64,000 nucleotides of DNA from Spirochaetota bacterium (GTDB lineage: Bacteria; Spirochaetota; UBA4802; JAFGDQ01). This document shows positions 32,613 to 34,651 of this stretch, one piece after another. A model generated the notes under the pieces. It was not told the DNA's origin, did no database searches, and saw nothing but the letters and a program-made list of their open reading frames with translations. Location: NCBI GenBank assembly GCA_043803405.1, contig JAZDKB010000009.1, positions 128,001 to 192,000 of the forward strand. The letters run 5' to 3'. Within the stretch, counting starts at the first letter, position 1. Each line of letters begins with the position of its first letter. The translations under genes and the position numbers were made by a program.

Positions 32613-32675
32613 GTAATGAACGCTACGTGGAGTGTAATGAATGCTACATAGAGTGTAATGAACGCTACATGGCTT
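32613..32675. repeat. 3 x 21-bp tandem repeat
   Basis: GTAATGAACGCTACGTGGAGT / GTAATGAATGCTACATAGAGT / GTAATGAACGCTACATGGCTT. Confidence 0.9.
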
Positions 32676-32849: not shown

Positions 32850-33157
32850 CCCCCCTCTCCTTTTTTTTTAATTAATGGGAGATGGGGCTTGGGGGTGAGG
32901 GCATGACCGTTTGTACTCGACCAATCCATGTAATCCATGGTTCGGATGTTCCTCCCTTACCCATTCTTTATATGGGAGAAGGCGACGGGCACGGAGGCCC
33001 TAGTGTCGGGCGCGGTGACGAACAGGATGTTCTAATATCGGCTATGCGACAGGAGGTCGCGTTTATAGCCGATAAATGGATGTCCGTTTGCGCCTGACTG
33101 GTTAGGAGGGTGAGGTTATGTACGCTTGCGCCTGACTGGTTAGGAAAGTGAGGTTAT
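32850..33157. repeat. Cluster of short palindromic and direct repeat remnants
   Basis: CCCCCTCTCC...GGGGCTTGGGGGTGAGG; GAACAGGATGTTC; TATCGGCTAT-GCGACAGGAGGTCGC-gttt-ATAGCCGATA; 32-bp direct repeat at 33088 and 33126. Confidence 0.7.
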
Positions 33158-33196
33158 CCCTTCTCCGAAATTTTTTAAAAAAAAACATCCAAAAAC

Positions 33197-33225
33197 TTGA
33201 CGATTCAAAAATATTAATATATTTT
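33197..33225 (+). promoter_or_regulatory. Putative sigma70 promoter of the 33307 gene
   Basis: TTGACG-17 nt-TATTTT; AAGGAG RBS at 33295-33300. Confidence 0.4.
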
Positions 33226-33306
33226 TTATAGAATTATTAAATTTCTGATATTTTAATCTGATAATTCACCTTTTAATATTAAAAAATCAAATCAAAGGAG
33301 AGTCAC

Positions 33307-34038
33307 ATGGCAACAACCGACGAAACACCGGTAAAAAAATCTTCACAAAACGAATCAGGCCACGCAATAAACGTGGCAAATTTTTCTCAGCTTGTAACGG
33401 AAATAAAATCATTCTCAGCAGACTATAACCCGTCATCGGATATACTTAAGGTAGCAAATCTCGAAACACTGCGCGACAGTGCAAAAACCGCGCTCAATTC
33501 CATGCACCAGGCAGATTCCGTGTACAGGGATGCAATAAACAAGCGCCAGCTCGAATTCGATAAAATGAGCAGTCTTGTAACGCGGATAAGCGGCGCAGTC
33601 AAAGCCGCAGGCGTAGACAGCAAAGTAAAGGAAGAAATATCATCCCTGAACAAAAAGATAAAAGGCGGAGGGATAAAATCCGAAACAACAGAAAACAGCC
33701 ATTCAACTTCCCAGATGAGTTACGATAACAGGCTCAATAATTTTACACAGCTTGTGGTTAAACTTAAAGGCATACCCGAATACAAACCCAACGAAGCATC
33801 GCTTGCACCCGATTCCCTGGACGCGTATATAAATTCGCTCGCGCAGGTAACGGAAAGCGCGGATAAAGCATGGAGCGAGCTGGACAGGGCGCGCAGCGAG
33901 CGCGACCGTTTACTGTATTCCGATATCAACAACCTGGTGCCTGTTGCGCTCAGGGTCAAGGAGTATACCAAAAGCCTTTACGGCACCAAAAGCAGGGAGT
34001 ACAAGGCAGTATCTGCTTTAAAATTTAAAAATAATTAA
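33307..34038 (+). CDS. Uncharacterised all-alpha-helical protein ('ESGHAINVANF...YNPS...SQMSYD...YKPNE' type)
   Basis: 243 aa, strong RBS, amphipathic helices, internal YNPS/YKPNE pseudo-repeat. Confidence 0.85.
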   Translation: MATTDETPVKKSSQNESGHAINVANFSQLVTEIKSFSADYNPSSDILKVANLETLRDSAKTALNSMHQADSVYRDAINKRQLEFDKMSSLVTRISGAVKAAGVDSKVKEEISSLNKKIKGGGIKSETTENSHSTSQMSYDNRLNNFTQLVVKLKGIPEYKPNEASLAPDSLDAYINSLAQVTESADKAWSELDRARSERDRLLYSDINNLVPVALRVKEYTKSLYGTKSREYKAVSALKFKNN

Positions 34039-34049
34039 TGATACTTACA

Positions 34050-34091
34050 GCAGGGCGCGGATGCTTCAACAGGTTTCATGCCGCGCGCTGC
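34050..34091 (+). other. GC-rich hairpin directly after the stop codon, ahead of the repeat array
   Basis: GCAGGGCGCGG-ATG...CAT-G-CCGCGCGCTGC; no U-tract follows. Confidence 0.55.
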
Positions 34092-34159
34092 TTAACCCCA
34101 TGGCAGGCAAACAAGACCCTTGTCATTTTGCAAAGCATTTCACACAACACGCTTTCCCC

Positions 34160-34516
34160 CGCGTATATCATGCACCCGCGGAACATATAAACGCAATCCC
34201 GTATACATATCGCTATCCCTCGCGTGATTCATACGCATCCCCGGATGCATATCGCATTCCCTCGTATGATTCTTTTACGGCCTCGGATACATCTAGCTTC
34301 CCCTCGCATGATTCTTTTACGGCCTCGGATACATATCGCATTCCCGCACATGATTCTTTTACGGCCTCGGATGCATATCGCTTCCCCTCGCATGATTCTT
34401 TCGCAGCCTCGGATACATATCGCTTCCCCTCAATGTTATATTGCTTTATATCAGAGTATTATAGAACTATACCGGAGTGTTATTGCTTCTTCAAGGGGAT
34501 GTTTTGCTTTAAAAGT
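34160..34516. repeat. Array of 21-nt units; core 34202-34432 is 11 alternating A/B units (42-nt higher-order period)
   Basis: A ~ GATRCATATCGCWTYCCCTCG, B ~ CATGATTCTTTTACGGCCTCG; degenerate in-phase units on both flanks. Confidence 0.92.
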
Positions 34517-34536
34517 CTATTTAACTAGACAGTTCA

Positions 34537-34651
34537 GAATAATCAAAAAGGATAATATCTATGGAGCAGGCGACAGGACGTCGCCGGAACTGCGTAAAAC
34601 AGGATGTTTTTTACGCAGTTCCGGAATAGATATTATCCTTTTTGATTATTC
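34537..34651. mobile_element. MITE-like palindromic element
   Basis: Perfect 26-bp terminal IR GAATAATCAAAAAGGATAATATCTAT; internal hairpins GGCGAC-aggac-GTCGCC and CCGGAACTGCGTAAAA/TTTTACGCAGTTCCGG. Confidence 0.75.

Follow-up and report, generated by a model that had tools for sequence, protein, structure and literature searches.

In ParR-parC, SopB-sopC, TubR-tubC, pSK1 Par and iteron systems, a gene lies beside phased tandem sites for its own product. The locus presented here, found in the window (the whole stretch of 64,000 nucleotides that was analyzed), resembles these plasmid systems in that phased tandem sites, to which the product would bind, adjoin the gene and in that specificity diverges between copies. 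However, the unit here is chromosomal, has no motor or replication partner and gave no plasmid match with one query protein; fold searches with the protein returned generic helical bundles and no helix-turn-helix or ribbon-helix-helix match, the array is mostly downstream, and specificity appears to lie in two short arms. In the type III toxin-antitoxin systems ToxIN, CptIN and TenpIN, as outlined in the portion of PMC3401426 drawn on here, repeats of 31-60 nt lie upstream and form RNA pseudoknots that inhibit a Kid/MazF-like RNase. The present unit likewise joins a stand-alone gene to a tandem array, in many cases with a terminator separating the two, and shows cognate specificity and a patchy distribution, whereas its units are 21 nt long and unstructured and lie downstream in 189 of 215 loci and upstream in 20 of 201. 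No match to a ToxN/CptN/TenpN-like RNase rose above noise in Pfam, NCBIfam or PADLOC, and the protein model is all-helical.

TIGR-Tas and VIPR arrays, too, lie next to a cognate protein and interleave short constant motifs with variable bases. According to the main text of a survey from 2026 that deals with periodic elements between genes (bioRxiv 10.64898/2026.10.21.760802), they have periods of 18/36 and 5 nt, unique spacers and proteins of Nop or Vipr fold. The array here differs in its period of 21, and the main text of the same survey lists no 21-nt class; sequence searches gave no Cas, Nop or Vipr match. The intergenic direct repeats of Bacteroidota, namely the TAACTGA heptamer repeats (PMC4679880) and the BrickBuilt MITE minisatellite (PMC4596501), are comparable, and the AACTG core recurs in one array class of our family; however, their periods are 7 nt or 23 nt, and the portions of these sources used here mention no cognate adjacent gene. 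The closest description is that of Subirana and Messeguer (2021; PMC8161180), who reported tandem repeats of constant 20-21-nt size in Bacillus, pointed to two turns of DNA and proposed a protein polymerizing on DNA. The arrays here fit that description on each listed feature, being non-coding, fixed in period and variable in sequence, with short conserved words and several families per genome, whereas the relevant part of that paper names no protein and no gene linkage and the family here has a gene. Why many bacteria retain non-coding 20-21-nt repeats without common sequence has been a puzzle since that report, and the family described below is a candidate reader of them.

The literature covered, which took in subscription papers thinly and had supplements outside its scope, holds no earlier description of the family, the pairing or the code. 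The pairing of gene family and 21-bp array is real and conserved, comes with a candidate specificity code that can be tested, and is undescribed in that literature. An earlier reading of the window from its letters alone (the sequence-only reading) had proposed an undescribed protein-plus-array unit, and this is supported. The pairing is general across family loci, and no named family was matched.

Gene and array in the window

The features of the locus are as follows.

33294..33302, + strand: purine-rich ribosome-binding site (RBS) of the 243-aa gene, from sequence
33307..34038, + strand: 243-aa gene with a basic, all-helical product, from the open reading frame and an AlphaFold2 model
33652..33675, + strand: RKIxG-x-R loop, codons 116-123, whose residue 121 co-varies with array patch 1
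33667-33669, + strand: codon 121, Gly in the window protein
34024..34035, + strand: codons 240-243, conserved Phe and C-terminal tail, FKNN here, the tail co-varying with patch 2
34049..34092, + strand: GC hairpin without a U-tract, -23.1 kcal/mol on folding
34139..34201, + strand: possible decayed units on the left, identity at or near chance
34202..34432, + strand: array core of 11 non-coding 21-bp units, alternating A/B, from TRF and the 21-nt register
34433..34516, + strand: possible decayed units on the right; of the four, one (12/21) exceeds chance

The 243-aa helical gene and its RBS, as read earlier from the letters, are borne out by the open reading frame, the RBS sequence and the model. 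The promoter-like TTGACG assigned with them is a 9/12 match and carries no weight as evidence, because five sites of this type were observed where 6.2 are expected.

TRF reported a period of 42/21 at 34203-34431 with scores of 290-326. The core units alternate strictly (A, B, A and so on; six A and five B), each being identical to its own type at 13-21 of 21 positions, and the A and B types have in common exactly positions 2, 3, 7, 9 and 17-21. The strict alternation and these nine positions, including the terminal CCTCG, were found just as the sequence-only reading had given them. What it missed is that, as judged from sequence, the nine positions are the two specificity patches of the family: T7 and T9 are patch 1, and positions 17-21 with 2-3 (CCTCG-AT) are patch 2. 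Its dismissal of CRISPR also stands as regards the spacers, since the units are copies of two types; sequence searches matched no Cas protein. Its count of about 17 units does not. Among nine flanking 21-mers, one matches at 12/21 (chance 0.005), two at 10/21 (chance 0.06) and the others at chance, so 11 is the defensible unit count.

No Rfam family covers the window array or the hairpin, and the array RNA folds no better than its shuffles (z -0.72). The GC hairpin without a U-tract is present as described, while its membership in the system is not supported, given the 61 of 145 family arrays that begin within 25 nt past the gene stop; it is locus-specific and not a conserved part, and is probably either a weak terminator of the 243-aa gene or an inserted repeat. 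Alternation of A and B is likewise no defining trait, given that 117 of the 145 arrays are plain 21-nt repeats, 20 alternate at a dominant period of 42 and eight have a period of 63. Hairpin and alternation are thus local features, as most family arrays are plain and many start near the stop.

Several further repeats surround the unit. An 18-nt inverted repeat brackets it (33173-33190 and 34497-34514), and nothing general was found when terminal repeats bounding gene and array were sought in 121 loci. REP-like hairpins flank it on both sides (33019-33084, 33080-33157 and 34537-34651; Rfam Bacillaceae-1, 36.7 and 26.8 bits), the right one within a perfect, MITE-like 26-nt inverted repeat and the left one followed by a 38-nt tandem duplication. 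A different three-copy 21-bp repeat at 32613-32672 recurs at C15:16503, C36:33964 and C9:221734 of the window's genome (G000); it precedes four unrelated genes and resembles the operator of a regulator. One of these genes may be Cas6-like.

A basic helical protein family

The AlphaFold2 model of the 243-aa protein is all-helical with a pLDDT of 94.5, and it includes a helix of 52 residues. By arithmetic on the predicted model, such a helix would span about 78 Å at 1.5 Å per residue, compared with 71 Å for 21 bp of B-DNA. The protein consists of two halves, one spanning roughly residues 12-122 and the other 128-243, which hhalign identifies as homologous (probability 97.4, E 1.4e-11). The family comprises 1883 representatives (50% identity) at E<=0.001, and its members are basic, their median pI being 9.4, and share conserved Arg, Lys, Tyr and Ser residues. 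It is carried by 40 of 401 Bacteroidia genomes, often in multiple copies, by 22 of 201 genomes of one family, and by three of 101 among the window's genome and its relatives. The named loci are mostly from Bacteroidota, with others from Ignavibacteriota, Acidobacteriota and Edwardsbacteria, which agrees with the earlier suggestion of a Bacteroidota family linked to repeats, as arrays do lie beside these homologues.

Pfam, NCBIfam (150 members), PHROG and PADLOC (nine proteins) gave no family match above noise, PDB sequences gave none for the family under E 0.01, and Foldseek gave no structural match at E<=0.001 against PDB and BFVD. When the model was compared by VIA-align, only generic helical bundles were returned, the best match having Z 9.1, rmsd 3.0 and 87 aligned residues; for the half-domain, the best was Z 8.3, rmsd 2.2 and 67 aligned, again a generic bundle. 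Structure prediction with Foldseek, the check that the sequence-only reading had suggested, yielded a confident helical model and, among fold matches, generic bundles. ESM Atlas neighbors are all unnamed, with DUF6261 at 0.81 as a lead only.

With one query protein, no family match was found among 72,556 plasmids or 50,697 phages, and two IMG/VR contigs carry a member. Gene neighbors vary from locus to locus even at 93-98% protein identity. No recurring partner gene emerged: the largest neighbor cluster covers four loci, and no conserved ATPase was seen. Among 70 upstream neighbors scanned, eight are restriction or defense-like genes (a count without a background control). An empty-site comparison covering five relatives located neither the flanking gene nor the solo-array locus. 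Gene and array together are likely a mobile unit that occupies many unrelated chromosomal sites.

Pairing of the gene with a 21-bp array

We scored all periods of 5-70 in the flanks of 215 family loci and kept the best. Downstream of the gene, 189 of 215 loci had a best period of 21, 42 or 63, as did 20 of 201 upstream; on either side, it was so in 200 of 215, which answers positively the proposed search for periodic arrays beside homologues. Among later-fetched loci, the top period was a multiple of 21 downstream in 80/85 and upstream in 5/74. (From 122 later loci, 16 without a full-length match, 12 duplicates and nine with <250 nt downstream were left out.) The 15 loci without such a top period are mostly distant members. 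Three of them (L142, L143 and L161, of a distant clade) carry 22-bp arrays after a clear terminator. In six loci (L122, L132, L141, L145, L158 and L283), the array precedes the gene, at a distance of 100-340 nt, and does not follow it.

Array length is narrow, with a median of 11 units and a 10-90% range of 8.5-14.5. Arrays differ between clades, paralogues in one genome carry different arrays, and the more alike two proteins are, the more alike are their arrays when compared on the same strand. By a partly circular measure, 127 of the 145 arrays fit the sense register better. Many arrays are homogenized to near-identical units, and a minority combines a short constant core with individually distinct, colinear units (L007, L009). 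A common non-coding element follows the array in L008, L011, L013, L014, L017, L035, L036 and L042; of 133 loci, 45 have a downstream element in common with a member <70% identical, and this element may be a cassette recombination site. Heptamer repeats of 7 nt, distinct from the arrays, were noted close to L126 (upstream), L005 and L077 (upstream) and L113 (downstream).

Arrays of the window's family also stand without a gene in G000. One (C30:31369-31527) has kept the A/B alternation and the core positions, with mismatches at 6/63 core and 33/84 other positions (p 5e-5). Another (C4:193179-193452) consists of a homogenized A unit and is antisense to its flanking genes.

Conserved solo arrays, the narrow array length and an architecture that recalls a centromere-binding protein with its tandem sites would all suit a DNA-bound, motor-less centromere or nucleoid-organizing patch that aids segregation, in which the binding is the same and the purpose another. 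Considering that no conserved ATPase or other partner was found, that one query gave no plasmid or phage match, and that the spread is patchy and multi-copy, we regard this purpose as unlikely.

Two arms of the protein co-vary with two patches of the array

For the analysis of specificity, arrays scoring <15 in delimitation or shorter than 105 nt, upstream arrays and redundant loci were dropped, which reduced 178 loci to 145. Aligned without protein information, the 145 arrays settled in one register, with 0.474 in all 30 starts compared with 0.34 for the null. The columns richest in information are 5 and 14-15, which mark two conserved patches about a turn apart. When protein columns were scanned against array similarity, residue 121 came first (r 0.17, the next 0.09), and tails grouped with array types. 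By within-clade permutation, residue 121 is associated with array columns 2-3 (z 8.8 and 8.2; <=1.6 on columns 12-17), tail positions +3/+4 after Phe240 with columns 14-15 (z 12-13), and tail position +1 with columns 16-17 (z 11 and 8.5); scattered single cells of other residues also reach z 7-13 (99th percentile 6.1).

The tail rules were fixed before the later loci were fetched, whereas the residue-121 mappings and the column traits were defined after all loci were in hand. Kinship was handled only by a test on independent pairs, drawn from a core-only FastTree tree. The tail F[TS]x[PAQ]R goes with AG at columns 14-15 in 18/23 proteins compared with 0/122 of the others (independent pairs 6.8:0, p ~0.016), and in 11/11 compared with 0/45 among the later loci. 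The tail F[KR]x[VIL] goes with CT (19/27 vs 7/118; pairs 6.5:0.2, p ~0.03). In the case of residue 121, Lys goes with GA (21/33 vs 4/112; pairs 7.6:1, p ~0.04), while the associations of Arg with TG (21/34 vs 3/111; pairs 3:0) and of small residues with C (26/45 vs 15/100; pairs 4.6:1.6) were not significant in the pair test. Smaller classes concur (FKxR tail 6/6 vs 12/139; D/E121 9/13 vs 38/132), and none of eight cross-controls on independent pairs was significant. With the window included in the counts, its protein fits the code in both arms (G121 class 7/9 vs 19/136; FKN tail 3/3 vs 16/142).

The two arms are separable. Among proteins <60% identical, those with equal residue 121 have a patch-1 similarity of 0.31 compared with 0.03, whereas for patch 2 the values are 0.19 and 0.18; those with similar tails have a patch-2 similarity of 0.42 compared with 0.18, whereas for patch 1 they are 0.10 and 0.08. 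Residue 121 thus predicts patch 1 only and the tail patch 2 only, a double dissociation, and all six arm combinations were found with the matching patch pair. The arrays have no nucleotide match to the codons of residue 121 or of the tail (p 0.18-0.92), and therefore the link runs through the amino acids. Because the tail codons adjoin the array, recombination can move both together, as in L012 and L013; pure linkage is countered only by the residue-121 signal and the mixed arm combinations. The L012 and L013 proteins are 96% identical and differ in their last residues, and their arrays are unrelated, each fitting the tail code; L012 lies at a contig end, where misassembly is possible.

Evolution of the arrays

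Orthologous arrays are colinear unit by unit, and in 12 close pairs indels are absent or multiples of 21 nt, except for one 1-nt gap. Over 16 pairs, core columns differ at 158/1062 and variable columns at 682/2491 positions. In several pairs, divergence in the variable columns is below that of four-fold sites (strongly so in one, 0.04 vs 0.29); in others, it is near the four-fold rate.

A coding array, including one reached by read-through of the gene stop, was ruled out because 27 of 73 arrays have every one of the six frames interrupted by stops and because a codon-phase signal is lacking: the 73 arrays have no 3-nt harmonic, and 16 pairs show no synonymous or third-position bias in any frame. 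The stop-free frames of the window array are accordingly by-products, as had been suspected, and selection of the array frame as a 7-aa repeat protein, which the sequence-only reading had named as the finding that would speak against it, is not seen in these pairs. Open frames are slightly more frequent than under a column-permutation null in the 73 arrays (sense 30 vs 20, antisense 30 vs 22), and some are heptad-like. This excess, together with the fact that TRF reports period 21 more often than any other in the window's genome (60 of 218 TRF loci, many weak) and that array similarity follows protein identity, could reflect a minisatellite or heptad-peptide gene that hitch-hikes, with co-variation owed to common ancestry. 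However, an array at 200 of 215 loci, the double dissociation between distant proteins, the all-frame stops and the missing third-position bias make such hitch-hiking the least probable of the alternatives considered here.

The 10.5-nt harmonic is strongest in 18 of 45 arrays, and weak 7- and 14-nt autocorrelation is also present. Palindromic units are not general, as dyad symmetry reached p<0.05 in 5/73 only, despite the two-fold protein. When folded as RNA, neither strand of the arrays does better than column-permuted nulls (mean z -0.15 and 0.20, n=40; pseudoknots are outside the folding model). Terminators separate the gene from its array in 14 of 51 longer leaders and follow the array in four of 76. 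An own promoter for the array was rejected: with a Bacteroidota -7 consensus, the motif was found in 4/48 leaders and 4/76 distal antisense flanks, compared with 22/78 upstream of the gene. RNA-library contigs of relatives, from the locus of another species, contain the gene and parts of the array in small shares, without strand, start or end.

These data bear on the reading in which the two patches are recognized by the protein on array RNA in single-stranded form, as a 3' UTR or as processed units, the RNA being coated in a nucleocapsid-like manner or neutralizing the protein as in a type III toxin-antitoxin pair. The library contigs, which make array transcription putative, the kept strand polarity (127/145, by the partly circular measure), the many arrays that begin shortly past the stop and the weak 7- and 14-nt autocorrelation agree with it. 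It is the main rival, but we consider it unlikely, given that neither strand has a fold signal, that no promoter motif serves the array, that terminators are often ahead of it and seldom after it, that some arrays are upstream or displaced, and that the period equals two turns of B-DNA. The cutting of array RNA into 21/42-nt units, an option in the sequence-only reading, is not supported, given the same lack of fold signal and own promoter.

A guide RNA array, TIGR- or VIPR-like, in which the protein clamps the patches and the variable bases pair with a target, would account for the arrays with a constant core and distinct colinear units (L007, L009) and for the pairs in which variable columns diverge less than four-fold sites, 0.04 vs 0.29 being the strongest. 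Many arrays are homogenized, however, variable columns of other pairs diverge near the four-fold rate, and the arrays have no match to their own gene, so that we hold this to be very unlikely, if slightly less so than the hitch-hiking. The fold searches, which return generic bundles, list no Nop, RAMP or nuclease. The idea that the gene serves as template for its array, or pairs with it, was rejected for want of a match between the two; a weak sense-strand excess of array matches was noted in the upstream 200 nt (77/139, p 0.019).

Proposed binding of the array as DNA

Taken all together, the best explanation is a two-part unit of gene and array in which the protein binds its own array as double-stranded DNA by reading two patches, and we give this whole reading a probability of roughly 60%. 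Its parts differ in strength. That the protein recognizes its own array directly is very probable, because the code holds between distant proteins and is no nucleotide match. That the ligand is double-stranded DNA and not RNA is probable: this is favored by the two-turn period, the patches about a turn apart, the flexible position of the array and the placement of terminators, as well as by the solo copy antisense to its neighbors and the solo copy that keeps its core. The pairings of Arg/Lys with G and of Asp/Glu with C, which are typical of DNA read-out, also favor it. Arg with TpG has been reviewed (PMC11514455, drawn on in part), and the argument from this pair is weak here because other classes also often have T at column 2. 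The phased DNA-binding platform that the sequence-only reading had offered thus seems the best reading of these sequences, given period, register and co-variation.

In the proposed arrangement, one protomer per 21-bp unit would read the two patches, about one helical turn apart, through two short variable arms, the residue-121 loop and the C-terminal tail. About 11 protomers may load side by side to give a protein-coated rod of about 230 bp. As to purpose, the array could be a DNA sponge that holds its own protein in check, making the unit an addiction or defense module whose separate codes would keep paralogues from interfering with one another. This is the most speculative step and, even if DNA is the ligand, less likely than not; it is favored because a stand-alone, mobile, multi-copy and partnerless unit with diversified specificity most resembles addiction modules. 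No toxic motif or PADLOC match was found in the family, and segregation or nucleoid organization is nearly as plausible a role. In its fullest form, in which a helical-rod protein about two DNA turns long tiles the 21-bp array via two swappable arms and loss of the array as antitoxin or sponge frees the protein, the model is rather doubtful, if somewhat less so than the RNA and centromere readings.

The code is predictive, in that swapping one residue or the four-residue tail should alter the preferred patch. If the binding model is true, the family would represent a nucleic-acid-binding fold that is new and modular in its specificity, carried by roughly one in ten of the Bacteroidia genomes sampled. 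If the tiling and sponge reading were also true, it would explain the constant length of 21-nt satellites and provide a new programmable DNA-binding scaffold and a new class of two-part mobile module with a residue-to-base code.

Other 21-bp arrays in the window's genome

Three further helical-looking genes of G000 lie beside 21-bp arrays of their own families: a 158-aa gene (C47:24039-24848, L296), a 172-aa gene (C6:97455-98148, L297) and a 127-aa gene (C2:39556-40368, L298). The unit described above, if true, could serve as a template for other families of a helical gene with a 21-bp array. The 158-aa family ends in a helix, a Phe and a basic tail like the 243-aa family, with an hhalign probability of 0.2-1.3%, which is not significant. 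The 158- and 172-aa gene families also have solo arrays (C15:125712, C47:60502 and C7:56662). Long 21-bp arrays are furthermore found within operons without a helical gene at C19:331778, C26:10203, C33:40972, C6:47198 and C53:35441.
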